NCBI GenBank assembly: GCA_031423975.1
Contig: JANPGQ010000311.1
Span: 1-38,551, forward strand
Source: Cytophagales bacterium
Lineage (GTDB): Bacteria; Bacteroidota; Bacteroidia; Cytophagales; Spirosomataceae
Direction of reading: 5' to 3'
Length of the DNA stretch: 38,551 bases
Below the pieces are notes generated by a model, which ran no database searches, was not told the origin of the DNA, and saw nothing but the letters and a program-made list of their open reading frames with translations. The translations under genes and the position numbers were made by a program. Shown piece after piece: positions 4,327-31,591 of this stretch. Within the stretch, counting starts at the first letter, position 1. Each line of letters opens with the position of its first letter.

Positions 4327-5298
4327 TCACAAATTGCGAGGGTCGATGATGATACTGTCGTCTTGGGGTTTGGTAAAACGATATTTCAACATGAGTTCGT
4401 GCGAACCTATCTGCCCTTGTGTACCTATTGGTGCGTTGTAGGCATATCCAAATTGAATTTTGGAACTCACTTGTATTTGTAGAAATCCTACGAACAAATC
4501 TCCTAATCGTACATTTTTGGAAGCATCTCTGAATTGCTGATTACTACTGCGATAGGATGTTCCGAGGGTAAGTTTTTCTAATAATTCCAATTTTGCGTTA
4601 AAATCAAAAGTAGGAGGGGCGTTTTCAATCACTTTCACCAAAACCGAAGGCTCAAAGCTAATGTATCGGGTGAGTCTTGCCCGATACCCTATTTCTCCAA
4701 AATAATAGCGTACTTGTTTATTCTGCCCAGTCGAGCCATTTGTCTCGGTCAAACTCAAATCGTTGGGAATAAACTGGGGAACTGATAGTCCTATGTAAAA
4801 ATTTTGATTGTTCAAATACACTCCTGCTCCTATATTGGGCAAATATTTATTGACATTTTGGGTAAAATTTGGGTCGATAGGAGTTCCTGTATTTACGCAC
4901 GTAAGACAGGCTCTGAAATTAGTTGCTCCCGCCTGTACGCCCATGGTCAGATTCATGTTATCATCATTCAGTTTTACTTTATAGGCGTAATTCAAGAGCC
5001 CGCCCGTGCTTTTCACAATGCCCGCAATATCATTAAAAAACTGAAAACCAAGACTCACTTTTTCGCTTTTTAGTGGTAAAACTCCAATAATTGCTTGCAC
5101 CTGTGGGTCACCTTCAAAATCTGCCCCCAGCCATTGTTTTCTGTACAAAACGTTGACTTCGGGCGTAGTTATTTTGCCTATTTGAGCAGGGTTTATCGCC
5201 ATAGGATTAAAAATATATTGCGAATAAACGGCTTCTTGTTGGGCTTGAATATGATAAAATCCGAAGAGGTAAATGAGGGTAAAGAATATCTTTTTCAT
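4327..5298 (-). CDS. Type IX secretion system membrane protein, PorP/SprF family
   Basis: Signal peptide then QQEAVYSQYIFNPMAINPA, YRKQWLG, NYAYK, PNIGAGVY, YIGLSVP, EPSVLVK, LGTSYR, FGYAY and GSHELMLKYRF, the characteristic PorP/SprF motif order. Confidence 0.92.
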   Translation of the reverse strand: MKKIFFTLIYLFGFYHIQAQQEAVYSQYIFNPMAINPAQIGKITTPEVNVLYRKQWLGADFEGDPQVQAIIGVLPLKSEKVSLGFQFFNDIAGIVKSTGGLLNYAYKVKLNDDNMNLTMGVQAGATNFRACLTCVNTGTPIDPNFTQNVNKYLPNIGAGVYLNNQNFYIGLSVPQFIPNDLSLTETNGSTGQNKQVRYYFGEIGYRARLTRYISFEPSVLVKVIENAPPTFDFNAKLELLEKLTLGTSYRSSNQQFRDASKNVRLGDLFVGFLQIQVSSKIQFGYAYNAPIGTQGQIGSHELMLKYRFTKPQDDSIIIDPRNL

Positions 5299-5404: not shown

Positions 5405-7837
5405 TTATTTATTAATGCTCTTAGTTTTTACAACTGAATACGGTACACAAACATTTGGTTTACAGCAATCTACGCTAACAAATTCGGCAGGGCAACATCC
5501 TCCTGCGGGACAACTTCCGACTAAGGTAGTAAAGGTATAAGTTCCCACAGAATTTACTCTTAATGTTGATGCCGTTGCACCACTAATTACCGTTCCGTTT
5601 TTATACCATTGAATTCCTTCATAACCCGTTGGAACGGTAATATCATATTCATCACCACTTCCAGAACAGATTTCGATGGGTACATAAAAGCAAGCCGAAG
5701 CATTATCATCTTCCAATATAGGATTGGTGGTGTTACCCGTTGTGTAAGTATTGCCTGGTTTTGAATCTTTATCCACTTGGTCGCAAGTCATTACTTCTGC
5801 AACATTGAAAAAAGTGCCTTGAGCCACAGCCTGAACGGTTATCATCAAATTGATGGTTTGTTGTCCTGCTAAATTTCCAACCGTCCAAATACCCGTAGAT
5901 GAATTATAAGTACCTGTAGAAGTAGCATAAGTTTTAAACAAAACACCTGCTGGCATATAGTCTTTTACACTAACACCCGTTGCTAAATTTGTACTTTGGT
6001 TAGTTAATGAAATGGTATAGGTAATTAAATCACCAATGATAGATTTTTTCTGATTAACCGTTTTTATCAAGGCTAAATCAACTTCTACCTGTGGATTAAC
6101 TATTCCTGTTACCGTGAAAACAGCCCAAGCACTAACGCACTGATTGTTGGTGTTACAAGCCTGATATTGAATAGAGTCTTTACCTACATAACCCGTTGTG
6201 GGCGTATAAGTAAATGCACCATTAGTTGATAAAGTAATACCACCATGGAGTGGTGTTGGTAATGGAGATATTTTCACCGTTAAAGTACCCGCCGGGGTAT
6301 CATTGGCTAATACATTTCCAGAAACTGGGGTATTTACTGGCGTTGAATAAACATCACGTACTGCCACAGGTGCAGTGCTGGTAACGGTGAAAACCGCCCA
6401 AGCTTTTACGCATACATTGTTTACATCGCAAGCCTCATATTGAATAGAATCTTTGCCTACATAACCTGTTGTGGGCGTGTAAGTGAAAGCACCGCTGGTT
6501 GATAAGGTCAAACTGCCATGTAGTGGAGTGGGGAATGGTGATATTTTCACGGTTAAACCTCCGCTTGGTGTATCGTTGTCAAGTACATTTCCAGAAACTG
6601 GCGTGTTGAAAGGCGTTGAATACACATCACGATTTGCCACAGGTTGTACTGGTGGAGGACCCACCGTTGTGAAAACCGCATAAGCCTTTACACATACATT
6701 ATTGCCATTGCAGGCTTCGTATTGAATAGAGTCTTTGCCTACATAGCCCGTTGTAGGAGTATAAGTAAAAGCACCATTGGTCGATAAAGTTAAACTGCCA
6801 TGTAGTGGAGTGGGGAATGGTAAAATTTTCACGGTTAAACCTCCATTTGGTGTATCGTTGGCAAGTACATTTCCAGAAACTGGCGTGTTGAAAGGCGTTG
6901 AATACACATCACGATTAGCTACCGGTGCGGGTCCTGTTACGGTAATAATAATATAGGCTTTATCACAAACACTTCCTGCATCACAGGCTTCGTATTGAAC
7001 GGAGTCTTTACCTACATATCCCGTTGAAGGGGTATAGGTAAATGCTCCCGTTGAAGACATCGAAATACTGCCATGAAGTGGCGTGCCTAATGAGGATATT
7101 TTGACGGTTAAACCCGTTGCTGGAATATCATTGGTGAGAGCATTGCCCGAAACGGCTGTATTAATAGTGGTACTGATATTATCATTAACCGCATCCACAG
7201 TAGGATTAGTACAAAGCGTGTTTAAACAAACGTTATAGCTTTCAAAAACGCCCCCTGCTGGTACAGTTGGGTTACTATAATCGTAAGGATCAGGCGTGAT
7301 TACGATGATTTCGTTCATTCCTGTTACGGGAAAATCCGTATTGGTGTTGTCGGTATGCCATTTAAAATTGACACATCCATCTCCTTTCACAATATCAAAT
7401 TGAATGCAAGCAATGGTGATATAAGCTGTTCCTACTTGTTTAGCACCTGCATTACTGCCTGAATATAAAACATTTAGAGATACCAATCCCATTGTGCCAT
7501 CAGCACTAAGTTTTGACCCCGTTAAGGTTTGAGTTCCGTAGTTGGAATCACTGGCGGGAGCGGCATTCGAGAAATTTTCTTGGCTAATGTTTTTAGGATT
7601 ATTTACAACAGTGGCGTCATAATCAAAACGGAAATTTCCGTCTCCTAATTTGAACGTCGAGTTGGCATCGTGTGCTTTTACCTGTACCTGCAAGACTACT
7701 TTCTTGGTGATACAGTCACTACTTTTTAGTTTGAGTCTAACATCAAACTTTCCATTTGGCGTTGTTTGTGCAATAGACGGCATTGCCCAAAGCAATACCA
7801 TCAGACAAGTTAAAGTGGCGGCTAAAACTTTTCTCAT
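5405..7837 (-). CDS. Secreted 810-aa protein: cohesin-like N-domain, 4 Big_9/cadherin-like Ig repeats, DUF11 domain, Cys-rich C-tail
   Basis: Signal peptide SIA/Q. Repeats of PVA.RD.YSTP.NTPVSGNVL.ND...GAFTYTP.TGYVGKDS.QY.AC. DUF11 pattern VDLALIKTV...GDLITYTI.LTN...ATGVSVKD.MPAG...WTVGNL. Ends CPAGGCCP...CCKPNVCVPYSVVKTKSINK. No type A or type B CTD seen. Confidence 0.85.
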   Translation of the reverse strand: MRKVLAATLTCLMVLLWAMPSIAQTTPNGKFDVRLKLKSSDCITKKVVLQVQVKAHDANSTFKLGDGNFRFDYDATVVNNPKNISQENFSNAAPASDSNYGTQTLTGSKLSADGTMGLVSLNVLYSGSNAGAKQVGTAYITIACIQFDIVKGDGCVNFKWHTDNTNTDFPVTGMNEIIVITPDPYDYSNPTVPAGGVFESYNVCLNTLCTNPTVDAVNDNISTTINTAVSGNALTNDIPATGLTVKISSLGTPLHGSISMSSTGAFTYTPSTGYVGKDSVQYEACDAGSVCDKAYIIITVTGPAPVANRDVYSTPFNTPVSGNVLANDTPNGGLTVKILPFPTPLHGSLTLSTNGAFTYTPTTGYVGKDSIQYEACNGNNVCVKAYAVFTTVGPPPVQPVANRDVYSTPFNTPVSGNVLDNDTPSGGLTVKISPFPTPLHGSLTLSTSGAFTYTPTTGYVGKDSIQYEACDVNNVCVKAWAVFTVTSTAPVAVRDVYSTPVNTPVSGNVLANDTPAGTLTVKISPLPTPLHGGITLSTNGAFTYTPTTGYVGKDSIQYQACNTNNQCVSAWAVFTVTGIVNPQVEVDLALIKTVNQKKSIIGDLITYTISLTNQSTNLATGVSVKDYMPAGVLFKTYATSTGTYNSSTGIWTVGNLAGQQTINLMITVQAVAQGTFFNVAEVMTCDQVDKDSKPGNTYTTGNTTNPILEDDNASACFYVPIEICSGSGDEYDITVPTGYEGIQWYKNGTVISGATASTLRVNSVGTYTFTTLVGSCPAGGCCPAEFVSVDCCKPNVCVPYSVVKTKSINK
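6580..6916. repeat. Near-identical intragenic tandem repeat units (282-nt period)
   Basis: The 55-nt string caagtacatttccagaaactggcgtgttgaaaggcgttgaatacacatcacgatt occurs identically at 6580-6634 and 6862-6916. Confidence 0.85.
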
Positions 7838-7883
7838 GTTTGTATATATTTAATTGAAATTTTTGGTAGTGATTGGTTATTCG

Positions 7884-7954: not shown

Positions 7955-7997
7955 AAAATAACCCGATAACAAGTAACCAATAACCAATTCCCATTCA

Positions 7998-8912
7998 CTA
8001 ATAATTCACGGTAATGAAACGAGTGAAGTTCTTTCCGTCTGCTCGTTTCACAGCGTAATAATATGTTCCTGGACTTACGGCACGGCTATTATCAAGTCCA
8101 TCTTGATTTGGCTTACCATCCCATTCGTTTTTATAATCGTCTGCTTTGTAAATCACCCTTCCAGAACGGTCAAAAATGGTAATACCCATATTGATATTTT
8201 CAGGATTTTTGATTTCGAATTTATCATTTACTCCATCTCCATCTGGCGAAAACCCCTCTGGAATGAAGAATGATTCGTTGGTTGGCAATTTTGATTCCGC
8301 TGAACAGGTAGATGCTAAATCAATTTTGAGGCTTTCAAAAGTTCCTGTTGCTTTGATATTTTGAAGTTGGAATTCATTATCTCCATTAGCATCTTTGTTT
8401 ATCAAAACTTCGTTCATACCCGTAGCAGGGAAACTCTTTCCCAAGCCTTCTTGCCACTTGATTTCCATGACTGATTTCAAGTCCACAAGGTCGAAACTAA
8501 GGGTTGAGACGGTTAGGTATTGTGTGCTAACCTCAGTAGCACTTTCACCCAAACCACCATAAAAAGTGTTTAAAGAAACGATGCCTTCTTTCATGCGTGC
8601 TGTACTTCCATTCAAATTATGTGAGCCATAATTTTTATCGGAAATTTCACCATGAGATGAGAAAAAGCCTTGCTTTTCGAGGGTTGGATTACTGATAACT
8701 GTGGGATTGTATGCCATTCTGTAATTAGCATCACCCATTTTGAATTTTGATTTTTCATCATGAGCTTTTACTTGTACATCCACTGATAATTTTTTGGAAG
8801 CACAGTCTAATTTCTGGGTGGCGATTCTGACATCGAAAACGCCATTTTGGGCATTCACGGCATGGCTGCCGATGAGCGAAAGCCCTAATATATAAAGATA
8901 TTTTTTGTTCAT
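7998..8912 (-). CDS. 304-aa T9SS substrate: cohesin-like domain fused directly to a type B (gliding motility-associated, CHU_C) CTD
   Basis: Start MNKKYLYILG at 8912, signal peptide VNA/Q. The C-terminus FFIPEGFSPDGDGVNDKFEI...IFDRSGRVIY...YKNEWDG...PGTYYY...FITVNY is the type B CTD pattern. Confidence 0.9.
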   Translation of the reverse strand: MNKKYLYILGLSLIGSHAVNAQNGVFDVRIATQKLDCASKKLSVDVQVKAHDEKSKFKMGDANYRMAYNPTVISNPTLEKQGFFSSHGEISDKNYGSHNLNGSTARMKEGIVSLNTFYGGLGESATEVSTQYLTVSTLSFDLVDLKSVMEIKWQEGLGKSFPATGMNEVLINKDANGDNEFQLQNIKATGTFESLKIDLASTCSAESKLPTNESFFIPEGFSPDGDGVNDKFEIKNPENINMGITIFDRSGRVIYKADDYKNEWDGKPNQDGLDNSRAVSPGTYYYAVKRADGKNFTRFITVNY

Positions 8913-9006
8913 GTCCATTAATTTTTGTGCCTTGTGGCGGTTCGAGAACAAAGTTCATGGTCGGTAAGTATGTTGCAAATACCAAGCCAGTTTTAACACA
9001 GTTCTT

Positions 9007-9066
9007 GGTGAACGGTTTTTCGACTATATTTTTCGCCGTGTACCGTTCACCCTTTACCTTTTACCT
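9007..9066 (-). promoter_or_regulatory. Intergenic hairpin with heptamer repeats just downstream of the 2163-aa gene
   Basis: ggtgaacggt (9007-9016) and accgttcacc (9042-9051) form a perfect 10-bp inverted repeat. The right arm is part of tcgccgt-gtaccgt-tcaccct-ttacctt-ttaccta. Confidence 0.5.
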
Positions 9067-9071
9067 AATTT

Positions 9072-12000
9072 TTAATGCAATACTCCTGAATAACGTCCGC
9101 TATTTTGTTTCCATAAGCTGTTATCCATAAAGTTTGAGTCGGCATCTAAATTGAAATCACTCAATAAATAAATATCAAAACTTCCTGATAAACTCTTCCA
9201 TAGGAGTGAATCTTTGAAATTGATGTCGTAATTATCATTGATAGTAGCTTTTGAACCATCTGCAGCGTACATCACGAACTTAGTACCAACCTGTTTTTCT
9301 CCAAATGATGGAGGGTTTGTTAGCTGATAGCTTTGTTGTGCCGTAAAGTCATACGTAATTTTACCAGCCGATACAGGCACTTTTACGTGCGACATTACCC
9401 CCATGTGATTGCGATGTTCGATAACCACGTAGAATGAACCACTCGGTAAAGTGAAGCATGGATTGACAAAACTAATGTGTCCGTCGCTGTGCAATAAACC
9501 TGCCACACTGAGAGCCTTGCTTGCCTTTGTCGAATCTGTACGAAGCGATACCAAAACCCAATCAACCACCGTAGTAGGATATGCAGTTATGGTTTCTGAC
9601 CCTGTATAACTAAATGGTAATAAATTGTAGGGTTGTCCTCCTGGTGTTGCCACAGCATAATTTCCCACAGGTGTTTGTCCTGGTAATAATCCTCGTTGAT
9701 TCAAAATGGTACTCATCAAACCTGTATTTGAGTCATAAGGTCCTTGAAGAATTACCTTGAAGTCAAACGTAACGCAAGGCTGTTCTAATATAGTAATATA
9801 TGCCGTTGCAGTAGTGCATAAAACTGGCGAACCATTATCACAAACCTTATACGTGAACACATCTGTACCCACAAACGTAGCGTTTGGTGTATAGGTAAAT
9901 GCACCCGTAGTGGCATTGAATACAATCGTTCCGTTGGCAGGGTTGGTCAATTTGGTAAATGCCAATATTTGCCCTGCATCGGGGTCGCTATCGTTCAAGG
10001 CTACTGAGGCTGATACAGATGTGCCTTTGAGCGTAATCTTGTAGTCGTCATTAGCAACTGGTGGATTATTTACTATCCCAACGGTTGCATCTTTTACATT
10101 GATTGTTACTACCGCCGTATCACATTTTGCAGTATTTGAAGCATCACAAACTTTATATTTATAGGTATCAATTCCTACGAATACTGGGTTTGGTGTATAA
10201 GTCATCGTGCCATTTGCATTAGTTACTACTGTACCGTTTAGTAGTGTTCCGATAGCCGTTGGCAAGCCCAAAGTACCTGCTGTATAAGTATCGTTTGCCT
10301 TTACAGAAATAATAACCGCCGTAGCTTTTGGGGTAACAGCATTATCGTCCAATGCCACTGGTAGTGTATTTGCTTGTGGTGTAATGCTGGGATCAATGAT
10401 GGTCAAATATGCCGTAGCATTTGAACACATAATTGGCGAACCATTATCACAAACCTTGTAAGTAAACAAATCACTACCTACGAATCCAGAATTTGGAATA
10501 TAAGTATATGTTCCGTTTGGATTAAAGGTAAGCGTTCCGTTTACTGGGCTTGACGTATTGCTGAAAGTCAAAATCTGTCCTATATTCGGGTCAGAATCAT
10601 TGGTAGCTACTGACGACGTTATGGTTGAATTTTTGTTCAACGTTTTAGCATCGTCCGTTGCTACTGGTGGTTCGTTTTTCACTACATTCATTGACTCATT
10701 TACTGAAACTGTTACGGTTGCAGTACTACATAACGAAGGTGTTCCCGAATCACAAACCTGATACGTGAAGGTATCGTCGCCAGTTGTTCCTGGGGTTGGC
10801 GTATAAGTAATCGTTCCATCAGGATTCACTACTACCGTTCCTTTGGTTGGCGGTGTGGTGATAGTCGGATTCTTCAAAGGCGTACCTTCTGGGTCGGCAT
10901 CATTGGCTAATACATTGATAGTTAAGGGCTTGTCTTTCGGCGTACTCGTATTGTCAGGATTGGCTAATGGTGGCAAATTTGTACCAGAAGTCAATGGCGT
11001 TGTGATGGTAATGGTTACCGTAGCGGTATCACACAATGAAGGCGTTCCGTTATCACAAACCTTGTATTTGAAAGTATCATTACCCGTAGCCGTTGGATTT
11101 GGCGTATAGGTAAATGTTCCGTCTGGCAAAATTGTAACTGTTCCTTTGGTTGGTGTTCCACCCATAATTGGACCCGAAGCTACTAAAGGATTGCCCTCTG
11201 GGTCGGTATCATTGGTCAAAACATTACCTGTTATTGGTGTACCTTTTGGGGTTACGGCAATGTCATTCGTAGCAATTGGAGCATCATTTTTAGGTAATAC
11301 TGTTATTGGAATGATAACATTGGTACAAATTCCTGAAGCATCACAAACTTTTACACAAACCGTATCTTTTCCCGAAAAATTAGGAAGTGGCGTGTAGGTA
11401 ATACAAACCTGATGTGGCGTTGTACTATTATTTACCGTAACCGTAGTAGCACCGTGTTTCGGAGCAGCACATAATGAAACTGTATGCGTTTCGTTGGCAT
11501 CGGGGTCATTTATTGGCAAACAAACCGTTACGGTACTATCTTCAGGTACAATGATTGGCGTTGGCACAATAACTGGAGGGTCTGGTACAGGCGTAACTTT
11601 CACAGGTACTTTGATGGTAGTACAATTTCCATAAGCATCACACACCTTCACACATACCGAATCAGTACCATTAAAATTAGGATTGGGCGTGTAAGTAGTA
11701 CAAACCTGATGTGGTGTTAAAGTATTATTTACCGTGTAAGTAACCGTTCCGTTTAATGCACCACAAGGTGTAACCGTATGAGTATCAACTGCATCAGCAT
11801 CCACAATTGGCATACAGAATGTGATTGGTGTCCCGTCTTCTGGCATCGTTGGTGGCGTAACTGGTGGTGTAATTACTGGTGGTGCTGAATTGATATTCGT
11901 TACCGTCAAAATCACCGTTGCGTTGCTACATAATACTGGCGTTCCGTTATCACAAGTCTTATACGTGAACATATCCGTACCCACATAATTGGTAGCAGGT

Positions 12001-15000
12001 GTATGGGTATATGCTCCTGTTGTTGGATTGAAACCCGTGATTGTTCCGTGCGAAGGAGTTGATAATTGCGTGTAAGTCAATACCTGTCCTGCATTTGGGT
12101 CAGTATCATTTGTGGCTACAAAACCATTCACAGGTACATTTTTAGGTGTTTGCTTACTATCGTCCACAGCATCAGGAGGAAGGTTTACTGCCCCAATTGG
12201 TTTTGGAGTAAGTTCAACCGTTACCGTGGCAGTATCACACTTTGAAGGTATGCCTGTATCACAGATAATATATTTGAAAGTATCCGTTCCCGTAGCCGTT
12301 GGACTGGTTGGCGTGTACGTTACCGTTCCATCAGGATTTACTACTACCGTTCCCTTCGTTGGACCAAAAGCTGGTACAAGCGTTGGAATGGTCAATGGCG
12401 TACCGTCTGGGTCAATGTCATTCGCTTTTACATTAATCACTAATGGCGTTCCTGCTGGTGTAATTACGTTATCATTTACAGCCAAAGGAGGTCTATTTAC
12501 CCCTGGCGTTGAAGTAGGGTCAAATACTTCAATCGCTACCGTTGCCGTATCACAAAGCGTTGGCGTTCCATTATCACAAACACGATATTTGAATACATCC
12601 GTACCCACAAATGTAGGGTTTGGCGTATAGGTATATCCACCTGTTGGCGTTACAGTCAATGTTCCATTAGCTGGTGACTTTACTGGTGTTGTTGATACGG
12701 TCAGTGTTTGTCCTGTGTCAGGGTCTGTATCATTTGTCAAGACGTTTCCAGCTACTGGTATGGCTTTGGGCGTAATGTTTACATCATTGATAGCCACTGG
12801 TTTATCGTTTACAGCCGTTACCGTGACAGGAATTTTTACATCAGTACAAAGCCCCGAAGCATCACATACTTTTACGCAAATGGTATCTACACCATTGAAA
12901 TTAGTAAAAGGAGTATAGGTTACGCAAAGGGTATGCGTTACATTATTTACCGTTGTAGTTGCCGTTCCGTTTTTAGGCGTTGCACAAGGCGTAAGCGTGT
13001 GCATATCACCTACATCTGGGTCAGTTATTGGCATACAAACCGTTTTAGAAGCAGAATCTTCTGGCATCGTAAGCAGTACTGAAATTACGACTGGTGGGTC
13101 TGGTAAGGGCGTAACTGTAATGGGAATAGTTACGTTAATACATTTTCCATAAGAATCACAAATTGTCAAACATACTGAATCTTTACCTGCATAATTTGCC
13201 GTTGGTTTATAATTCAAACAAACTTGATGCGTAGTGTTATTTACAGTTGGAGTGGCTGTTCCATTTTTTGGAACTCCACAAACTGTAACCGTATGCGTAT
13301 CATTTTTATCGGGGTCTGAAATTGGCAAACATAATGTACTAATTGGCGAATCTTCCGCAACCATCTGAGGTGTTGGCGTAACAACTGGTGGGTCTGGCAC
13401 GGGCGAAACCACAACTGGAATTAATACGTTGGTACATAATCCCCCTGCATCACAAACTCTTACACAAATAGTATCCTGACCGTTGAAATTAGGGGCAGGG
13501 CTATAAGTAACACAAACTTCATGCGTAGTATTATTCACAATAGCTGTTGCATTTGAACCCGCTTTTGGCGCAACACATAAACCAGCAGTATGCGTGTCTG
13601 TTCCGTCTGGATCTGTAATTGGTAAACAAATTGTCTTAGCCGCAGAGTCTTCGGGCATAGTAATTTGCTTTGGTAAAACCACAGGAGGGTCATTCACAGG
13701 CGTAACTTTTACGGGTATTTTCACCGTTGTACAAGCTCCATTATTATCACACACTTTCACACAAATCGAATCCGTACCATTAAAATTTGGATTAGGCGTA
13801 TAGCTCAAACAAACCTGTTTGGTGGTAGGATTCGTACTGGCGATAGTAGTTGTTCCGTTGTTTGTCCCACAAATACTTGCGGTGTGCGTATCGGTAGCGT
13901 CAGCATCTGAATAGTTGAAACAAATCGTCAGAGGCGTAGCTGGGTCTTCGGGAGTTGTGGGTGTAACGGCTGGTGGAATAATCACTGGTGCGGTATTAGA
14001 CGGTGCTGTTACTGTCAAATATACCGTAGCGGTATCACACAAAACTGGCGTTCCATTATCACATACTTTATATATGAAAGCATCTGGACCTGTATAGCCC
14101 GTTGTGGGCGTATAGGTATAACCGCCCGTTGGGGTTATAACTACTGTACCATGTGCAGGAGCGGATATTGGTGCGGTGGTGTATGCCAAAATTTGCCCAG
14201 CATTGGGATCAGTATCGTTACCAAAAAATATTCCTGTCAAAGGAGTATTTTTCAGCGTAGTACCTGCATCATCACCTGCAATCGGTTTGTCATTGGCTGT
14301 GATAGGATTATTATCTACCACAACATCAATGGTGGCAGTGGTGGTTGCACACGCTTTTGGCGTAGCATTATCACATACCTGATACGTGAAAACATCTTGC
14401 CCGCTAAATCCTGAATTTGGCGTGTAGGTGTATGTTCCGTTTGGTAAAATAGTTACCGTTCCATTGGTTGGAGGGATTACTGGCGTAGTAGTTGCCGTAA
14501 GCGTTTGCCCTGCATTGGGGTCAAAATCATTACTCAATAAATTGCCAGTAACGGGCATTGAAACATTGGTTTGGGTAACATCGGGTTGAGCAACTGGTGG
14601 TGCATTTACCCCTGGTAAAGATGGTAGTGCCAAGATAGTAATTGTTACCAAGGCAGTATCACACTTTTGTGGAATTACATTATCACAAATTTTATATTTG
14701 AAAATATCTGTCCCCGAATAGCCCGTTGTAGGCGTATAGATATAAGTTCCATTAGCATTTAATACTACTGCACCATGCGTTGGGCTGATAATTGGCGTAG
14801 TGGTAACAATCAATCCAGAGCCAATATCGTTAGTGAGAACTTGTCCAGAAACGGCTATATTTAAGTTAGTAGTATTGATGTCATTTACTGCCAAAATGGG
14901 TGAACAATAGGTACTCATACAAGAATTAGCATTGCCAAAATAACCACTTGCCTTTACGTCTGCTTGTTTATACTCGAAAGAAGGGTCTGTTATAATACCG

Positions 15001-15563
15001 TAAACTTCATTCATACCCGTAACTGGCGATGTTTTGTCATCGTTCCAAGTAAGGTCAAAACAGTCATTTCCATTCACTACGTTAAACTTTATACAAGCTA
15101 CAGTTGCCCATTTAGGAGTAACTAATTTAGCTCCTTGGTTTGAACCAGTATAAAATGTATTCAGCGATACAATTCCTTCGGTAGGACCTTCGCCCGAACC
15201 ATTTAAGTTCTCGAAACCATAATTGGTATCACTCGAAGGAGCTTTTGCTGAATAATTTTCTTGACTCACCAAACTCTGTGCAAAGGTTGGCGAAACACCC
15301 AAAAGCCTCAACTGAGTGGTTTTGAACCGAAAACGATAGTTGGCATCTCCCATCAGGAAGGTGTCGGCAATGGAGGTAGCCCGAACTTGTACGGCAATGG
15401 TGAGCGTTCTGGGTGAGACAGAACAGTCAGTACTTTTGACTGTAAATCTCACATCGAATTTTCCCGCTGCTACGGGATGCATACCACTCTGTGCTCGGGC
15501 GGTACTGATTATTCCCAAAAAGAGAAAAACAGCAGAGAACAGCGTTAATAGCAGTTTTTTCAT
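9072..15563 (-). CDS. 2163-aa secreted adhesin/stalk protein: cohesin-like N-domain, ~17 Big_9/cadherin-like repeats, C-terminal dockerin-like domain
   Basis: Signal peptide ARA/Q. Manual count of 17 repeats (P.A..D...T...ND.DP...G.YTYTP...G.D.F.YKVCD.G.P..CD.ATV). The C-terminal ~235 aa run KVILQGPY...VVDWVLVSLR...EHRNHMGVMS...DINFKDSLLW...DFNLDADSNFMDNSLW. Confidence 0.88.
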   Translation of the reverse strand: MKKLLLTLFSAVFLFLGIISTARAQSGMHPVAAGKFDVRFTVKSTDCSVSPRTLTIAVQVRATSIADTFLMGDANYRFRFKTTQLRLLGVSPTFAQSLVSQENYSAKAPSSDTNYGFENLNGSGEGPTEGIVSLNTFYTGSNQGAKLVTPKWATVACIKFNVVNGNDCFDLTWNDDKTSPVTGMNEVYGIITDPSFEYKQADVKASGYFGNANSCMSTYCSPILAVNDINTTNLNIAVSGQVLTNDIGSGLIVTTTPIISPTHGAVVLNANGTYIYTPTTGYSGTDIFKYKICDNVIPQKCDTALVTITILALPSLPGVNAPPVAQPDVTQTNVSMPVTGNLLSNDFDPNAGQTLTATTTPVIPPTNGTVTILPNGTYTYTPNSGFSGQDVFTYQVCDNATPKACATTTATIDVVVDNNPITANDKPIAGDDAGTTLKNTPLTGIFFGNDTDPNAGQILAYTTAPISAPAHGTVVITPTGGYTYTPTTGYTGPDAFIYKVCDNGTPVLCDTATVYLTVTAPSNTAPVIIPPAVTPTTPEDPATPLTICFNYSDADATDTHTASICGTNNGTTTIASTNPTTKQVCLSYTPNPNFNGTDSICVKVCDNNGACTTVKIPVKVTPVNDPPVVLPKQITMPEDSAAKTICLPITDPDGTDTHTAGLCVAPKAGSNATAIVNNTTHEVCVTYSPAPNFNGQDTICVRVCDAGGLCTNVLIPVVVSPVPDPPVVTPTPQMVAEDSPISTLCLPISDPDKNDTHTVTVCGVPKNGTATPTVNNTTHQVCLNYKPTANYAGKDSVCLTICDSYGKCINVTIPITVTPLPDPPVVISVLLTMPEDSASKTVCMPITDPDVGDMHTLTPCATPKNGTATTTVNNVTHTLCVTYTPFTNFNGVDTICVKVCDASGLCTDVKIPVTVTAVNDKPVAINDVNITPKAIPVAGNVLTNDTDPDTGQTLTVSTTPVKSPANGTLTVTPTGGYTYTPNPTFVGTDVFKYRVCDNGTPTLCDTATVAIEVFDPTSTPGVNRPPLAVNDNVITPAGTPLVINVKANDIDPDGTPLTIPTLVPAFGPTKGTVVVNPDGTVTYTPTSPTATGTDTFKYIICDTGIPSKCDTATVTVELTPKPIGAVNLPPDAVDDSKQTPKNVPVNGFVATNDTDPNAGQVLTYTQLSTPSHGTITGFNPTTGAYTHTPATNYVGTDMFTYKTCDNGTPVLCSNATVILTVTNINSAPPVITPPVTPPTMPEDGTPITFCMPIVDADAVDTHTVTPCGALNGTVTYTVNNTLTPHQVCTTYTPNPNFNGTDSVCVKVCDAYGNCTTIKVPVKVTPVPDPPVIVPTPIIVPEDSTVTVCLPINDPDANETHTVSLCAAPKHGATTVTVNNSTTPHQVCITYTPLPNFSGKDTVCVKVCDASGICTNVIIPITVLPKNDAPIATNDIAVTPKGTPITGNVLTNDTDPEGNPLVASGPIMGGTPTKGTVTILPDGTFTYTPNPTATGNDTFKYKVCDNGTPSLCDTATVTITITTPLTSGTNLPPLANPDNTSTPKDKPLTINVLANDADPEGTPLKNPTITTPPTKGTVVVNPDGTITYTPTPGTTGDDTFTYQVCDSGTPSLCSTATVTVSVNESMNVVKNEPPVATDDAKTLNKNSTITSSVATNDSDPNIGQILTFSNTSSPVNGTLTFNPNGTYTYIPNSGFVGSDLFTYKVCDNGSPIMCSNATAYLTIIDPSITPQANTLPVALDDNAVTPKATAVIISVKANDTYTAGTLGLPTAIGTLLNGTVVTNANGTMTYTPNPVFVGIDTYKYKVCDASNTAKCDTAVVTINVKDATVGIVNNPPVANDDYKITLKGTSVSASVALNDSDPDAGQILAFTKLTNPANGTIVFNATTGAFTYTPNATFVGTDVFTYKVCDNGSPVLCTTATAYITILEQPCVTFDFKVILQGPYDSNTGLMSTILNQRGLLPGQTPVGNYAVATPGGQPYNLLPFSYTGSETITAYPTTVVDWVLVSLRTDSTKASKALSVAGLLHSDGHISFVNPCFTLPSGSFYVVIEHRNHMGVMSHVKVPVSAGKITYDFTAQQSYQLTNPPSFGEKQVGTKFVMYAADGSKATINDNYDINFKDSLLWKSLSGSFDIYLLSDFNLDADSNFMDNSLWKQNSGRYSGVLH

Positions 15564-15643
15564 GCGAAGAATTGTTTAGGATGTACTAATTTATTAAAAT
15601 ATCCATCTACACCTGGCAGGGCGGAGGAGTGGACATACGTTTC

Positions 15644-15832: not shown

Positions 15833-15834
15833 TA

Positions 15835-18800
15835 TCAATGTGCCACTCCTGAGAAGCGACCATTATTTACTTTCCAAAGCGTATTATCTGAATTATTTAC
15901 ATCCGCATCGAAGTTATAATCTCCTGATAAATAGCGGTCGAAAATACCTGATTGTAACTTCCACAAATTCGAGTCGGCAGCATTGATATCGAAGTTATCA
16001 TTCTGCAATGCCTTCTTATGGTCGGCTGCATACATGACATATTTACCCGCTTTCACTTTCTGACCATACGATGGAGGGTTTGTAAGTGCATAAGAATCAT
16101 TGGTGGTAAAGTCATAGGTAAGCGTACCCGTTGTTACCGTTATTTTCTTATCACTCATTACACCCATGTGGTTACGATGTTCAACCAAAACATAATATGA
16201 ACCGTTGGCAATGGTGAAACATGGATTAACAAACGTTACGTTACCGTCAGCGTGCAGTAAACCTGCGGCTCTGAATACTGGCGTAGTGGTTAATGAATCG
16301 GTTCTTAATGAAATCAATACCCAATCCACTATATCAGTGGCATATCCACCCAATGGCATGGCTTCTGTTCCTGCATAATTCCAAGGAGTTCCCGAATAAG
16401 GCTGACCGTTTGGCGTAGGCGTTGCGGTAATGCCAATTGGAGTTTGTCCTGGTAATAATCCTCTCACATTCAAGAAGTTATTCATCAATCCAGAAACTGT
16501 ATTTAATGGTCCTTCTAATAATACTTTCAGATTAAAGTTTACACAAACACTCAAAATTGGGTCTTTTACAGAGAGATATACCGTAGCAGTATCACATAAA
16601 CTTGGTGTACCATTATCACATACTTTGTAGAGGAATTTATCTGTACCTACGAATGTTGCGTTTGGCGTATAGGCAAACGTTCCATCTGGATTAAAGCTCA
16701 CCGTTCCATTGGCAGCGAGTGTTAATAACGAATACGATAAGGTCTGTCCTGCATTCGGGTCATTATCATTCAAACTTGCACTTTTGTTGATTCCTACACC
16801 TTTGTTGGTGGTGTAAGCATCGTCATTAGCTACTGGTTTGATGTTGCCACCTCCGCTATAATCAGGCGTTACTTTTATTGTTACCGTGGTGGTATCGCAA
16901 AGTGCAGGTGTTTGATTATCACATACTTTATATTTGAATACATCCGTACCCACAAATCCTGTGGCTGGGGTATAAATATAAGTTCCGTTGGTGTTCAAGA
17001 CTGCCGTTCCATTCGTTGGATTCGTCAGTTTTGTGAAAGCTAACGTTTGTCCTAAGTCTGGGTCGAAATCATTTGAAGCCACCGTGCCACTTACTGGAAT
17101 ATTTACCAAAGTCTGATTGACATCGTGTATTGCCGTTGGTTTGTTATTAATTGGCGATACCGTTGGTGCATCTTGGACGTATAAATAAACGTAAGCTATA
17201 TCACATTCGGCAGGTACTTTATTATTACACATTTGATATTGAGCCGAGTCTTTTCCTATAAATCCAGTAGTTGATGTGTAAGAATACGTTCCGTTCGGAT
17301 TTAACGTTAAAGTTCCGTGCGTAGCTGGTGCGAGTAATGAAACCGTTACTGGCAAACCTTTCTTATCGTCATTGGTCAATACATCACCCGTTACCGTAGT
17401 ATTTTTCGGAACGATGTTAATGTCGTCAAATGCTACTGGTGAACTTACCGTTGGAATTGGTGATGGCAACACACTTACGTAAACCGTTGCAGTATCACAT
17501 AAGCTCGGCGTTCCGTTATCACAGGCTTTGTAGGTAAATTTATCAGGTCCTGTATATGCAGTTGTTGGAATATACGTGTATGAACCATCTGCATTTACCG
17601 TTACCGTTCCGTGAACTGGATTCGATACCTTCATGAATGAGAGCGTTTGTCCAGTATTTAGGTCGCTATCATTTGGTGCTACTGTGGCAGTTTTTGCAGT
17701 ATTGATATTAGTAACAATAGCATCATCCTGAGCATTTGGAGCATCATTTCCTCCCACTGGACTCAGTTTAGGCGTTACGTCAATTGTTACACTGGCAGTA
17801 TCACAAAGCACTGGCGAACCTGTATCACAAACCTTATAAGTAAATTTATCTTTACCGATAAATCCACTATTTGGTGTGTAAGTAAATGTTCCGTCTGGAT
17901 TAAATACTAATGTACCATTGACTGGATTTGTCAATTTAGTAGCCGTTAAAATTCCTCCTTCTGGATCGGTATCATTATTGGTTACTTTACCCGAAACTGG
18001 TATATTCACCAAGGTCTGAGCCACATCTGCACTGGCAATTGGTTTATCATTTGCGGTATTTGGCAATGGTGCAACGTTAATATATAACCACGCTTTACTA
18101 CATTCTGCGGGTACTTCGTTATTACAGATTTGGTACTGAACCGAATCTTTACCCACAAATCCAGTGGTTGGAATATATCCATACGTTCCATTAGGACTGA
18201 TGGTTAATGAACCGTGCTTGGCAGTGGTCAATTGCGTAACCACCACTGGCAAACCTTTCTTATCATCATTGGTCAATACATCTCCCGTTACCGTTGTGTT
18301 TATCAACGTATTGTTAATATCATTGACTGCCAAAGGCTGCGTTGATGATGGTGATACGGTCAGATAAATCGTTGCGGTATCACATTTCACTGGTGTGCCT
18401 GCATCACAAACTTTGTAAGTAACGGTATTGCCACCTATTGGTTTACCCGTCAATGGGTCAATGGCTGGCGTGTAGGTTACATTACCCAAAGCATCAATCG
18501 TTACGTTTGGATTACCACCTAACTTGGTGAATGCCAATGGCGTACCTTCTGGGTCTTTATCGTTTCCACTTACATTGTACGTTACTGGTTTACCCTCAAT
18601 TCCCAAAATGGCATCATCAATTGCCACTGGTGGCTGATTGACGGCTGGATTTGGTGTTACAGGCTCAACCGTGATAATCACTTTTGCGGTATCACACAAT
18701 ACTGGCGTTCCGTTATCGCATACTTTGTACTTGAATACATCCGTACCCGTAAATCCTCCGTTTGGCGTGTAAGTGAAAGTACCATTCGGGTTCATCGTTG

Positions 18801-21800
18801 CCGTTCCGTTGGTTGGATTCGTCAATGTGGTGAATGTGAGCGTTTGACCACTATCTGGGTCAAAATCGTTGATACTGGCATTACCACTTACAGGTGTACC
18901 TGCGTTGGTTTGTGTTACGTCATTGAATGCCACTGGTTTATCATTCGCACCCGTTGCTGGGTCAGGAATAACCTTGAATGTTACCCAAGCCGAATCACAT
19001 TCTACTGGCACGGCGTTGTTACAAATCTTATATTTTACCGAATCCACACCCACAAAATTAGGGTTTGGCGTATAGGTATATGAGCCGTCAGGATTCAAGG
19101 CAAATACTCCATTTTTAGCAGGCGTAATTACCGAAGGCGTAACTGGCAAACCTTTCTTATCATCATTGGTCAAAACATTTCCTGTTACTGGCGTATTCAC
19201 ACGTACCACAGCAATATCGTCTTGTGCATCTGGCTGTGTCATAGATGGCTGGGTTCTTAATTCAACTGTTGCGGTATCACACAATACTGGCGAGCCGTTA
19301 TCACACACTTTGTATTTCACCGTGTAAGTTGCTCCTGGCAATGCAGGGTCAATTCCTGGTGTCCAAACCAAAGTACCCGTTGGCGACAATGTTACCATTC
19401 CTTTGGTAGGTTGATTCAACAAAGTATAAGTCAAAGTCTGTCCTGCGTTAGGGTCACGGTCATTTCCTATTACCGAGGTTGTAACAGTTTGTCCACCCGT
19501 CGAAACTACTACATCGTCTCCTGCATCAGGTTTCAAATTAACCGTTAGCGGAAGCGTTGGGTCTAATGGTACTATTTTGATTGTTACCGTAGTAGTATCA
19601 CAAAGACTCGGCGAGCCATTATCACAAATTTTATACTTGAAGACATCCGTACCTACAAAAGTAGGGTTTGGTGTGTAGGTATAAGTTCCGTTGGCATTTA
19701 CCGTAACCGTTCCATTAGCAGGGTCAGAAATCTTACTTGTGGTGAGGGTCTGTCCTAAATCTGGGTCATAGTCATTGCCCAAAACTGAACTCGAAACAGG
19801 CGAACCTTGCTGTGTAACCACATTGTCTGGCATTGCCACAGGTTTGTCATTGCCAGCCGTTGGATATGGAATGGTATTGATATACAACCAAGCCGAATCA
19901 CATTGTACTGGAATTAGGGCATTACAAACCTTGTATTTCACCGAATCACGACCTACATAATGCGGTACGCCGCCCGTAGGATTTGGCGTGTAGGTATAGC
20001 TTCCATTTGGATTAAATACAATCGTTCCATTTTTAGGATTCGTCAATTGTGAAGCCATCAGTGGATTGCCCTTAGAATCATCATTGGTCAAAACATTTCC
20101 TTTTACTGGCGTATTAGGCGAAGTAATGGCGATGTCGTTTTGAGCCACGGGATTCGTGATTTTATCATCCGTTTCTATCGTGATAATCACCGTTGCCGAA
20201 TCACACAATACGGGTGAACCGTTATCACAAACTTTGTATTTGAACGAATCATTACCCACAAAACCAGCAGTTGGTGTGAAGGTATAAGTACCCGTTGTTG
20301 GATTAAATCCTGTGATTGTTCCGTGTGCAGGATTACTTAATTGACTGAATACCAAGGTCTGACCAGCATCTGGGGCGGTGTCGTTTAGGGCAACCGTTCC
20401 TGATTTTGGCGTATTGATTTTCGTTAATAAAGCATCGTCCTGAGCAGCTGGTTTACTGTTTGCATTCAATGGCGTAATGACTGGCGTTACGTCAATTTCA
20501 ACTTTTGCCGAATCGCATTTTACTGGATTCCCGTTATCGCAGGCTTTGTAAGTGAAGTAATCTTTTCCTACAAAACCAACAGTTGGCGTATAAATATAGC
20601 TTCCGTCAGGATTCAACGTTACCGTTCCATGTGCAGGGTCGGTCAATTTCGTTGCCACAAGAACATCACCCAAATCAGGGTCCACATCATTGCCCAACAC
20701 ATTGCCTTTTACGGGAACACCTGCTTCGGTTTTTGCCACGTCATTATTGGCAATTGGCTTATCATTTTGAGGCGATGGCACATCACTTACATTGAAGTAA
20801 ATGTAGGCAGTATCACATCTCACCATTGGGATTTCGTTTACGCAAATCACGTATTTCACCGAATCTTTACCCACATAACCCGTAGTTGGTGTATAGATAA
20901 ACGAACCGTCTGGATTGATAGCAATGATACCATGTTTCGGAGCAGTTCCCGATGGTAAACCTACCACCAGAGGATTGCCTTTTGAATCATCATTGGTCAA
21001 AACATTACCCCCAACAGGCGTGTTTTTAATCGTCATGGCAATATCATTCACCGCATCTGGCTTGTTAGCATCAGGTTGTTTTGGCGGTAAAACTGTCAAA
21101 TAAACCGTAGCCGTATCGCACATTACAGGCGTTCCGTTATCACAAATCTTGTACGTGAACGAATCAGTACCAATAAAAGTAGCATTAGGTGCATAGCTGA
21201 ATGTTCCGTTGGCATTCATGATTACCGTTCCGTTGGCAGGATTCGTTAATTTGCTGAATGCAAGCGGTTCGCCGCCCGACGTATTACCATTCGGGTCGCT
21301 ATCGTTTTGAGCGGAATTACCGTTTACTCCTACGCCTTTATAAGTTACATAGGCATCGTCATTAGCAACAGGTTTGTCGTTTGAATTAGCACTTTTTGGC
21401 TTCACTTCAATTGTTACTGTGGCTATATCACACTTCACTGGCGTTCCGTTATCGCATACTTTGTATTTAAACATATCAATACCCGCAAAGTCCGTAACTG
21501 GAGTGTAGGTATAAGTTCCGTCTGGATTGAATACCAAGATACCGTCATTAGGGTCTGTTAAGTTGGTATAAGTCAATATCTGAGCAATATCTGGGTCGAA
21601 ATCATTATTGCCCACACTACCATTTACTGGCTTATTCAGGTACGTTACCGATACATCATTACTTGCCACAGGCGGATTATTATCAACCATTGAAGGTGGA
21701 TAAGGTAATACGTTCAGATATATCCATGCGGTATCACATAAACTGACAGTATTGCACAGAATGTATTTTGTCGAATCTTTACCGACAAAATTGGCTTTTG

Positions 21801-24800
21801 GTACATAGGTATAATTGCCGTTTGGTAATAAGGTTATCGTTCCGTTTTTTGGAGGAGTAGCCGTTACCAAACTGGTTGTAACTACCTGTCCTGCCTTATC
21901 ATCATTCGTTAAAACATTTCCAGAAACTGGGGTATTTTTAAACGTCAAGTTAATGTCATTAATCGCATTTGGGTTATTGGTAACTGGTGGTATTATTGTT
22001 AAAAATACCGTTGCAGTATCACATAAACTCGGCGTACCATTATCGCATACTTTATACAAGAATTTATCTGTACCTGAATAACCAATAGTTGGGGTATATA
22101 CAAATTGACCCGTTGTTGGATTAATCGTTACCGTACCGTGTGCGGGGGCAGTTACTGGCGTATTTGAATACGTCAATGTTTGTCCTACATTCGGGTCAGA
22201 ATCATTTGGTTTCAATTGATCTGTTACCGCAGTATTCATGGCTGTGATGGCAGCATCATCTTGGGCATTTGGTTTGTCATTGGCAAGTTCGTTGATGTCG
22301 GGACTAACTGTGATGCCTACGCAAGTTGAGTCGCAAGCATTAGATGGATCGCAGATTTTATAACAGAATACATCATTGCCCACAAAATTTGCATTTGGCG
22401 TATAAATAAATGTTCCATCTGGATTAAATACTATCGTTCCATTGACAGGGCTTTTCGTTAAAGTAGCCGTTAAAGGGTCTCCATCTGGTTCGAGGTCATT
22501 GTTTGTAACCTTACCCGAAACAGGAACATTCTTCAAAGTCTGAACCACATCACTATTAGCAATGGGTGGGTTGTTTCCGTTCACAAATGTGCCAGGCAAG
22601 ATGGTGACAATTATCCAAGCCGAATCACATCTTGATGCTGCATTACAAATCACATATTGAGCCGAGTCTTTGCCCACAAAACCAGTTGCTGGGGTGTAAG
22701 TATAAACTCCATTCGTTGCAACTGTCAAGTTTCCATAAATTGGATTTTTTACTAAAATCGGATTCGTAGTAAATGGCAAACCGTTTCCAGTATCATTCGT
22801 AGCGGTATTTCCTGAAACTGGTTTGTTTTTTAAAGTTACGTTAATATCGTTCTGAGCGTCTGGCGTTGGTGCTAACACTACTACATAAACGGTTGCGGTA
22901 TCACACAAAGTTGGACTACCATTATCACAAACCTTATACTTAAACTGGTCTGTTCCGAAGAATCCCGTAGCAGGGGTATAAGTATAATTTCCAGCCGCCG
23001 TAATAGTTACCGTTCCATGTACAGGAGGCGTAGTTGGCGTGGTAGTGTAAGTCAAAGTATTACCATTCGGGTCGGTATCATTAGACTTTAATATACCCGA
23101 AACTGGAATATTAAGATTTGTTAAAGCTGCATCGTCTTGTGCATTTGGACGGTCGTTCGTAGTGCCATTATAGTCTGGCGATACCGTAATTACTACCGTA
23201 GCCGTATCGCAGGCACCCTTTGTATCACAAACTTTATACTGAAATTTGTCTCTACCTGTGAAATTAGGGTCAGGCGTATAAGTATAAGTTCCGTCTGTGT
23301 TTAGCGTAACTGTTCCATTATCAGGCTGTACAATCACCGAAGCGGATAACACATCACCGTCTGGGTCAATATCGTTATTGGTAACTTTGCCCGATACGGG
23401 TATGTTTTTCAAAGTCTGCCCTGCATCGTCGCTGGCAACAGGAGCATTATTGATAAAACGAATTGGGTCAATTACATTGATGGTCAGCCAAGAAGTATCA
23501 CAAAGCGAAGCCGTATTACAAATCACATATTGAACAGAATCCTTACCCACAAAATCAATTGTAGGCGTGTAGGTATATGAACCGTTGGCATTGAGGGTAA
23601 TAGCTCCGTGCAATGGGTCCACCAAAGCATACGGTGTTAAAGTAAAGGCTAAACCTCCACCGTTATCATTGGTCAAAATATTACCCGAAATAGGGTTGTT
23701 TTTTGTTGTAATATTCACATCAAGTTGAGCATCAGGCACGGGAGGTACAACTACGATGTATACCGTTGCGGTATCACATAAACCTGCGGCATCACAAGCC
23801 TTGTATTTTAATTGGTCAGTTCCAAAATAGCCCAAAGTTGGGGTATAAGTGAAAGCTCCATTGACAGCCAAAGCAAAAATTCCGTGGGTAGTTGGCGATG
23901 TCATCGTAGTAGTTAAAACATTACCGTTCGGGTCAGAATCGTTTAAACGAACATTACCCGTAACGGGAACACTCAAGGTAGTACGATACGAATCGTCTTG
24001 AGCGAATGGAGCATCATTGGTGGTTATCCCATTAGCATCTGGTCTGATATAAACTACTGCTTTTGCTGTTGTACACTGGTTCAAATCATCACAAACTTGA
24101 TATTCAAAAGTATCTGTTCCGATATATCCTGGGTTTGACGTGTAAGTATATGAGCCATTGGCATTGATACTCACCGTTCCGTGACTTGGATTACTGACGG
24201 GGATAAGCGTATATTTCAACGCCCCATTTTCAGGGTCAAAATCGTTGCTCGCCAAATTACCCGAAACAGGGATATTCATATTGGTTTGAGCCACATCGTT
24301 TTGAGCAATCGGTGGTAGGTTTGTGGTAATGCTTGGTTTATAAACGTTCAAGTATAAAGTGGCGGTAGTACACAAATTATCTACCGAACAGATTTTATAA
24401 TTAATCGAATCTTTACCCACAAAATCAGTAGATGGCGTGTAAGTATATGTTCCGTTTGGATTGAAAACTATCGTTCCATGATTTGGCGTTGTTGTCGCTG
24501 TAAAGACATCCGTTGTGGTAGTTTTTGTATCATTAGTAGCCACAGAGCTACCTACTGGCACATTTACCAAGGTTACGTTGATGTCATTAATAGCCAATGG
24601 AACGGGTTTAATCGTTACAAGCACCTTAATAGTTGTACAGGTTGCAGTAACCGCATCGCATAGGGTTACACAAACAGAATCTGTACCCACAAAGCCAGGT
24701 TTTGGTTTGTAGGTTATACAAAGTTGTCCGCTTTCAATCGTGGCTAATGCCGTTGCTCCCGCCACCTTTGGATAACCTGGGCAAGAAGCAGCCGTAGCAC

Positions 24801-28776: not shown

Positions 28777-28800
28777 AAATTTAATTCTGATTGTTTGGTA

Positions 28801-28882
28801 GTACACTCCGTTTTATCGGAGGTACTAAAATTTATTCTGAACGAAACTCATCGCATGAACTCAGTTTAGCCATGCCATGAGT
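28801..28882 (-). promoter_or_regulatory. Two intergenic hairpins between the 854-aa and giant adhesin genes
   Basis: actcatcgcatg (28846-28857) and catgccatgagt (28871-28882), 1 mismatch. Also gtacactccg/cggaggtac at 28801-28825. Confidence 0.5.
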
Positions 28883-31465: not shown

Positions 31466-31539
31466 TGTATTAATATTTAATCCAGCCAAAGCCAGAAGTT
31501 TGAATGTATTTATTTTTAAATAGTTAATTCTATAAATGC

Positions 31540-31591
31540 AAAAAGCACAATCTATCAAGCAGTATTACTATTGCTTGATAGATTGTGCTTT
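31540..31591 (-). terminator. Strong intrinsic-terminator-like hairpin upstream of the first gene of the adhesin cluster
   Basis: Perfect 20-bp inverted repeat aaagcacaatctatcaagca (31542-31561) and tgcttgatagattgtgcttt (31572-31591). It ends in T5 on the minus strand, ~75 nt before ATG 31465. Confidence 0.7.

Follow-up and report, generated by a model that had tools for sequence, protein, structure and literature searches.

A cohesin-Ig stalk-dockerin protein as a likely extender in a T9SS-anchored adhesin locus of a Cytophagales bacterium

Gene, protein and locus

The stretch of DNA analysed here (the window) comprises 38,551 nucleotides of contig JANPGQ010000311.1 (assembly GCA_031423975.1) from a Cytophagales bacterium of the Spirosomataceae. 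Its minus strand carries a six-gene cluster encoding proteins of 885 aa, 4323 aa, 2163 aa, 317 aa and 810 aa and a PorP/SprF protein (Table 1). The 2163-aa protein, referred to below as the stalk, is encoded by a single intact open reading frame (ORF) and consists of a signal peptide, an N-terminal module (X), 17 immunoglobulin-like (Ig) repeats and a C-terminal module (Y). An earlier note, made from the sequence alone, had proposed it as a head-to-tail polymerising stalk. It is regarded here as a real, conserved and previously unannotated cohesin-Ig stalk-dockerin extender in a T9SS-anchored adhesin kit (T9SS: type IX secretion system).

X is common to the stalk and the 317-aa and 810-aa proteins (37% and 42% identity, E 2e-32 and 7e-44, respectively), and Y (aa 1930-2163) to the stalk and the 4323-aa giant (56%, E 3e-94). 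Whole-genome profile searches (genome 95% complete) detected three X and two Y, every one inside this locus, and the stalk was the sole protein detected with both, which bears out the claim of the earlier note that no other protein here combines them. Its count of about 17 disulfide-containing Ig repeats was matched by 17 Pfam Big_9 stretches and by 17 repeats (aa 219-1925) in a search with a local hidden Markov model (HMM); all of them bear Cys (two in 11 repeats, six in 6 repeats), from which we infer the disulfides themselves, and a D-x-D type acidic motif was present in 12 of the 17. A ligand-binding head is absent from the stalk, as had been supposed, because X is separated from the signal peptide by no more than about 9 residues. 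Residues 1-45 contain no Cys, so that the stalk is not a lipoprotein and lacks a lipoprotein signal of the type V pilin style.

An independent 18.3-kb contig (run X3) spans 6883-17499 with 62 substitutions and with listed gaps between genes only; as none falls inside the stalk gene, the gene is no assembly chimera. The nearest named records were from Arcicella (84% in X, L037), and the best-matching sequencing runs were from freshwater sediment.

Table 1. Features of the cluster, with positions in the window
Feature	Positions	Strand	Basis
XY protein gene (cohesin-Ig17-X-module/dockerin extender, "stalk")	9072..15563	-	ORF, domain and repeat searches
Sec signal peptide, aa 1-24, A-R-A end before Q	15492..15563	-	read from sequence
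X, cohesin-fold domain, aa 34-222	14898..15464	-	AF2 and Foldseek
17 Big_9/cadherin-like Ig repeats	9777..14897	-	Pfam, local HMM, Cys list
Y part 1, transthyretin-like beta-sandwich, likely X-module	9264..9776	-	weak matches only
Y part 2, likely dockerin, two Ca-loop/helix repeats	9075..9263	-	motif, profile rows
Giant, 4323 aa: head region, about 27 Ig repeats, C-terminal Y at 15838-16545	15835..28806	-	domain/profile searches
Anchor, 317 aa: cohesin 8301-8843, T9SS type B C-terminal domain 8001-8264	7998..8951	-	PF13585 E 5.8e-20, TIGR04131 E 1.8e-12
810-aa protein: cohesin 7211-7753, 4 Ig, DUF11, CVP-CTERM putative sorting tail 5408-5470	5405..7837	-	NF058574 E 4.1e-5
PorP/SprF beta-barrel	4327..5298	-	PF11751 E 7e-60, TIGR03519
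885-aa secreted protein, related to giant's head region; no X, no Y; short Cys-containing tail	28901..31558	-	sequence comparison

Structure and family of module X

The AF2 model of X, built from a 96-row alignment, reached a pLDDT of 94.7 and a pTM of 0.91. The Foldseek search of this model against the PDB gave 25 matches at E <=0.001 (best E 1.8e-5), and among the rows listed 40 of 40 were cohesin entries of types I-III, with identities of 5-16% and TM values from 0.37 to 0.55, the highest being to the type II cohesin 1qzn. The nine-stranded jelly roll that defines the cohesin fold was present in the model. X matched no Pfam family, and neither the single sequence nor the 96-row profile matched a PDB sequence. 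On the strength of the predicted structure, X is a diverged cohesin. The polar residues N42, R44, S100 and N102 are conserved on its putative binding face, the sheet 8-3-6-5, which we take to be the dockerin-binding one, and this face is conserved above the remainder of the domain (0.81 vs 0.52). X and Y were unrelated to each other by hhalign (probability 0.2). An X-related alignment match to the C-terminal domain (CTD) of GhpA was discounted, alignment A3 being contaminated by the CTD of the anchor.

The X family was found at 65 loci across Spirosomataceae, Saprospiraceae and other Bacteroidota; within one other family 11 of 201 genomes matched, some with up to 17 scored copies. The X tree, computed by a quick fallback method, did not resolve the deep forks, and we therefore derive no order of events from it.

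Structure and family of module Y

In the AF2 model of Y the beta-sandwich was confident over residues 1-146 or so, and the 65-residue tail did not fold alone. This tail consists of two repeats, the second of which (D-F-N-L-D-A-D-S-N-F-M-D) has the canonical dockerin loop D1-N3-D5-N9-D12; the first keeps D..D7-N9-D12 but carries an insertion on the scale of nine residues in its Ca loop. The Ca-loop residues were invariant or nearly so in 35/35 alignment rows, and the mark of a dockerin, a duplicated Ca-binding loop with D or N at positions 1, 3, 5, 9 and 12 followed by a helix, was found. With a 15-row profile of Y, only dockerin chains were returned from the PDB (3/3 rows), weakly (E 0.098-1.4), and Pfam Dockerin_1, tried on 12 relatives of Y, scored above cut-off in one (E 6e-8) and below it in two. 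The Foldseek search of the sandwich gave no match at E 0.001 and weak X-dockerin rows (4wi0_B, 4u3s_B, 5g5d_B, 2b59_B and 5k39_B; E 0.2-0.45), and a wide VIA search of Y, with Bacteroides fimbrial-type proteins on top and the dockerin part uncovered, gave a best Z of 5.4, rated unremarkable. The likeness of the sandwich to transthyretin-like domains, including X-dockerin chains, was not significant. Judged from the loop motif and the predicted model, Y is likely an X-module/dockerin dyad, a less firm assignment than that of X as a cohesin.

Relatives of Y also occur in tandem arrays, with five copies before a type A-like tail or three after a peptidase-like region, and one sits inside an RHS-type protein (P0174, P0101, P0196).

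Distribution of the gene arrangement

The order giant with Y, X-Ig17-Y stalk, X-bearing T9SS type B anchor, X-CVP protein and PorP was found in 7 further genomes of the genus. X was matched in 8/24 other genus genomes, and a complete stalk lay between a Y-ending protein and the anchor in 7/8, the locus being cut by a contig end in the eighth. Among 48 distinct Y-ending genes, the next gene was X-first in 39, without X in 3 and not detected in 6 (four of these near a contig or locus end), a share of Y-then-X that is inflated because the loci were mostly fetched through X. The plan X-Ig(9-24)-Y was borne by 17 of the 23 long X-proteins (own stalk included), the other 6 ending in a type B signal, and it recurs in Saprospiraceae. 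Since loci of Larkinella, Spirosoma, Runella and Fibrella hold a Y protein and an anchor with the stalk missing, the stalk is, from gene content, an optional insert between cargo and anchor. The reading of the stalk as an extender between anchor and tip, put forward in the earlier note, is well supported by this order and because X and Y were identified as a cohesin and a likely X-module/dockerin.

Several variants of the arrangement were observed. Small, scaffoldin-like DUF11-CVP proteins with two or three cohesins occur in Runella, Fibrella, Arsenicibacter and related records (L069, L071, L072, L074, L076, L089, L092, L093, L095, L099). In genome G008 the giant and stalk genes are separated by an additional gene of 326 aa (L024:2539-3516); its product, a stalk-clade cohesin and one Ig without dockerin or CTD, could be a cap or a decoy. 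A second architecture, head-cohesin-Y, has the cohesin directly before Y and often a degenerate face (L133:8577-13421, L134:1887-7145, L070:3-5507, L197); the next gene was without detected X in 3/4 of these, and two of the three end like type A T9SS cargo. A distant subfamily shows the plan once more (L135:2029-7161): after a 1111-aa protein with a weak X and a Y come two small proteins, which have a weak X and a type A-like tail.

In 8 Larkinella records (L075, L077, L079, L081, L082, L086, L087, L088) the adhesin island that is flanked by the first cohesin gene and the last dockerin gene is deleted (~9200-11500, locus coordinates). The left junction is always at the F-P codons of the cohesin, and the right one is at three places: just before the first helix of the dockerin in six, in its second loop in one, and in an Ig repeat in one, which yields a frameshifted cohesin-Ig2-Y. 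Intact forms are L059/L080 (one chromosome, ~80 kb apart) and L061/L083. The pattern resembles repeated excision at one fixed site, and it shows a path by which X...Y fusions can arise.

Partners of the stalk

The reading favoured here, at a probability of roughly 0.45, is that the stalk is an enzyme-free adaptor scaffoldin, similar to ScaH of Ruminococcus flavefaciens, which lengthens the link between anchor and adhesin and can likely insert more than once. Repeated insertion would depend on binding between the X and Y of the stalk, and the predicted self pairing, a check proposed beforehand in the earlier note, gave 0.50 for the X+Y complex vs 0.00 for the best of three controls, rated weak by the tool. 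In the benchmark of this tool 116/157 solved and 2/215 mismatched pairs pass, 18 of the solved ones and both mismatches lying at <=0.60. Contacts agreed to at least 93% between runs, no interface was given, and the Y chain had a pLDDT of 87-90 beside X vs 73 beside an unrelated protein (predictor other than AF2).

The cohesin faces were compared in five genomes; for one row the CVP cohesin came from a sister genome, and G021 was treated separately. At 25 putative face positions, which were picked after the alignment had been viewed and presumably lie on the face by the cohesin topology that we assume, the identity of stalk to anchor cohesin was 0.92-0.96, vs 0.28-0.33 elsewhere, and that of stalk to CVP cohesin 0.68-0.80, vs 0.40-0.43 elsewhere. 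The stalk cohesin is nearer to the CVP cohesin overall, yet differs from it on the face. The contrast over whole strands had the same sign, with 0.63 vs 0.49 for the front sheet and 0.39 vs 0.50 for the back sheet. Outside the genus, in 9 genomes with a complete stalk, all Y of the close type that were found lay on proteins that also have X, and in 6/9 the stalk was the only such protein found. Taken from predictions and alignments, self-binding of the stalk is plausible, at about even odds.

The observations that weigh against the favoured reading concern the modules, the choice of partner and export. As for the modules, Y alone had a pLDDT <50 over 165-234 with one helix predicted, its single sequence gave nothing significant in the PDB, its 35-row profile found zero dockerins there, and neither X nor Y matches any Pfam family, Dockerin_1 included. 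As for the partner, a resemblance to cohesin-dockerin structures already solved can produce the complex score, which gives no ranking of partners; the post hoc choice of the 25 positions counts here too. Over whole strands the stalk-anchor value was not significant (0.63 vs a null mean of 0.55, reached by 16% of 2222 null pairs). The stalk cohesin of G021 is unlike the anchor face (0.60), and the stalk cohesins of the genomes tested outside the genus differ from their own anchors at positions 98 and 104. The face shared by stalk and anchor is the family consensus and so may be ancestral retention. The stalk genomes tested outside the genus (5/5) hold 5-9 Pfam dockerins each, which are possible partners; these, together with the incompleteness of the assemblies, weakened the case from gene content for a Saprospiraceae stalk whose sole partner is itself, and it was set aside. 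The dockerins also differ: positions 10-11 read F-K and F-M in the stalk and A-A and N-S in the giant (repeats 1 and 2, respectively), position 10 of both repeats being A, N or S and never F in the giant (6/6 rows) and F being kept by the stalk at position 10 of repeat 2 (7/7 rows). This alignment pattern suggests that the giant and stalk dockerins are two specificity classes. As for export, no route is evident for the stalk or the giant: the T9SS CTD (PF13585/TIGR04131) was absent from both and present on the 317-aa anchor, and self-binding before export would be a problem.

Two specificity classes would suggest an ordered chain with a single copy of the stalk, in which the dockerin of the giant binds the stalk cohesin only and that of the stalk binds the anchor only, giving a fixed length and no polymer through a specificity switch like that of ScaC/ScaB. 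We hold this arrangement to be possible, if somewhat doubtful. It agrees with the gene order of giant, stalk and anchor, which obeys Y-then-X adjacency, with two dockerin clades (SH-aLRT 96 and 97) that have fixed differences at positions 10-11, with a stalk cohesin that has its own clade and a unique insertion after strand 3, and with fixed differences between stalk and anchor cohesins at flanking positions such as 46, 91-94 and 110; the 9-24 repeats seen between genomes would tune length without a polymer, and chains in the periplasm would be prevented if there is no self-binding. A stalk cohesin that rejects its own F-type dockerin would, however, be predicted to show changes on its face, whereas the positions shared by stalk and anchor and not by the CVP cohesin are in putative binding strands in 6/7, vs 1/12 for those shared by stalk and CVP cohesin; the genomes outside the genus in which the stalk is the sole close-type Y found tell against it as well.

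Two modules have left the family consensus, namely the dockerin of the giant and the cohesin of the CVP protein, and in three Runella-type loci of one lineage (L209, L212, L213) the gene directly after an A/A dockerin gene encodes a cohesin-CVP protein. Both observations would fit parallel docks, in which the small-residue dockerin of the giant binds the diverged cohesin of the CVP protein, and the stalk, docked on the anchor and on its own kind, forms a fibre without a cap. Such an arrangement is improbable: a fibre with neither head nor cap has no evident job, and wherever the junction is visible in the genus, the gene next after that of the giant carries a stalk-clade cohesin. A one-residue code between cohesin and dockerin (T86 with a non-F dockerin), which would have served it, was rejected, since L141, L142 and L084 have T86 beside F/F dockerins.

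It is more improbable still that the links mainly serve as a detachable export signal (piggyback on the T9SS), or that Y is no functional dockerin, the stalk then being a plain surface Ig-repeat protein. The lack of a T9SS CTD in stalk and giant would fit this, as would the weak structural support of the dockerin part and the size of the Y family, which numbers 11,887 cluster representatives at E <=0.001; among its best 150 members 134 end in Y without X, 13 also carry X and 3 have an internal Y. The nearly invariant Ca-loop residues and the conserved cohesin face speak for a working interaction, and a mere signal would not need 9-24 spacer repeats.

Neighbouring genes and expression signals

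The giant is likely the tip adhesin, and the PorP/SprF protein is the expected partner of the type B anchor; SprA is present in the source genome, and PMC10202324, in its accessible part, proposes that the cognate PorP holds the type B cargo. The dockerin family PF00404 was not found in G000 (95% complete), whose only two Y proteins are Ig-repeat proteins, nor were dockerin-bearing polysaccharide-degrading enzymes, the mark of a cellulosome.

Short Cys-led tails of the type C-x-x-G-x-x-V-P-x-L-K end those secreted proteins of the loci that are without X, Y or CTD (28904-28950 in the window; also L028, L029, L069, L076, L133). They resemble the CVP-CTERM tail (5408-5470 in the window) and are possibly another sorting or strand-addition signal; three further CVP-like tails lie elsewhere in G000.

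Scans for promoters and terminators gave no more than expected by chance (44 vs 38.4 and 10 vs 12.7, respectively). A TAnnTTTG motif upstream of the stalk was found neither in the window nor in 7 relatives, and there is therefore no sign of separate, stronger expression of the stalk. Long hairpins are predicted after the stop codons of giant, stalk and anchor (15564-15834, 8952-9071 and 7838-7997, respectively) and could tune transcript stability, and so the ratio of the subunits. The spacer 15564-15834 contains heptamer repeats that are found at many places of the genome, and it varies by 29 nt between strains.

Discussion

Under the favoured reading of a ScaH-like adaptor, all parts would be exported by Sec, signal peptides being seen. 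The 317-aa cohesin protein with its type B CTD would then leave by the T9SS and be held by PorP, a mechanism taken from the available text of PMC10202324. From the folds and the gene order, the dockerin of the stalk would dock in a Ca-dependent manner on the anchor cohesin, and the stalk cohesin would take the dockerin of the giant or of another stalk, giving short chains of variable length. An Ig repeat is about 4 nm long, so that each copy of the stalk, with 17 repeats, would extend the chain by roughly 70-80 nm. The ratio of stalk, giant and anchor, together with relative affinity, would determine how long the chain becomes, as proposed for ScaH. For the crossing of the outer membrane by stalk and giant without a T9SS signal, piggyback on the anchor is our guess.

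In R. flavefaciens, ScaH, as an insert, links the anchoring cohesin (ScaE) to an X-dockerin partner and its dockerin recognises its own cohesin, according to the accessible part of PMC5301203, and it is described as a variable-length spacer in those of PMC12270676 and PMC12484212. Like ScaH, the stalk has one cohesin and a C-terminal dockerin and no catalytic module; unlike it, the modules are set apart by 17 Ig repeats, the anchor is of the diderm T9SS type B/PorP kind, the cargo is an adhesin-like giant instead of a cellulosome, and the cohesin has no sequence match in the PDB or Pfam. Amy4 of Ruminococcus bromii also carries a cohesin and a C-terminal dockerin on one chain, and the available portion of PMC4611034 reports that they bind each other and proposes multimerisation; unlike the stalk, it is an enzyme, has no long Ig stalk and belongs with the sortase-anchored Sca2 instead of the T9SS. 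The type II cohesin/X-dockerin pairs of Clostridium thermocellum CipA and Acetivibrio cellulolyticus ScaA-ScaB share the cohesin fold and the predicted beta-sandwich directly before the likely C-terminal dockerin, and differ by identities of 5-16%, by the insertion in the first Ca loop and by the enzyme-bearing dockerins, which were not found in our genome.

Type V pili are joined by a donor strand, and their subunits carry a lipoprotein signal with an N-terminal Cys. The stalk shares with those of Bacteroidia (FimA, Mfa1) the logic of anchor, stalk and tip and the putative transthyretin-like sandwich, in Y, and differs from them by the absence of the lipoprotein Cys, by a subunit of 2163 aa and by a cohesin-dockerin link. 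T9SS type B adhesins have a cognate PorP/SprF, as in SprB-SprF. With SprA in the genome and a type B CTD gene clustered with PorP, the locus is like such adhesin systems, as far as the accessible text of PMC10202324 describes them; unlike in them, the CTD is on a small separate cohesin protein and the long Ig-repeat proteins have none. The stalk is neither a cellulosome part nor a type V pilin. Cohesins and dockerins also occur outside cellulosomes, for instance in ANME archaea (available part of PMC9012536). A cohesin-dockerin adhesin assembly anchored by T9SS/PorP was not described in the literature searched, which consisted of titles and abstract openings and excluded most subscription papers.

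The earlier note had further proposed a pilus-like assembly route. Its distinction from type V pili stands; the long filament found no direct support and is unlikely, and the route is not wholly new, since self-binding cohesin-dockerin proteins and variable-length spacer adaptors are already known from Ruminococcus, as the accessible parts of PMC4611034, PMC5301203 and PMC12270676 report. We would equally not expect a new class of surface filament, made of 70-80 nm Ig rods joined head to tail by cohesin and dockerin, nucleated by T9SS type B/PorP, capped by the giant and exported by piggyback.

Either way, the locus raises how long proteins without a T9SS signal get to the surface. It offers a small testable set of three cohesins and two dockerins, and cultured relatives exist (L037). 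If the stalk does bind itself, a modular filament route unlike type V pili would follow, and if the filament reading were true, this would be a pilus from cellulosome parts with its length set by subunit ratio. For the Bacteroidota, the finding suggests that enzyme-free adhesin assemblies are built from a cohesin/X-dockerin family missed by sequence searches of Pfam and the PDB.

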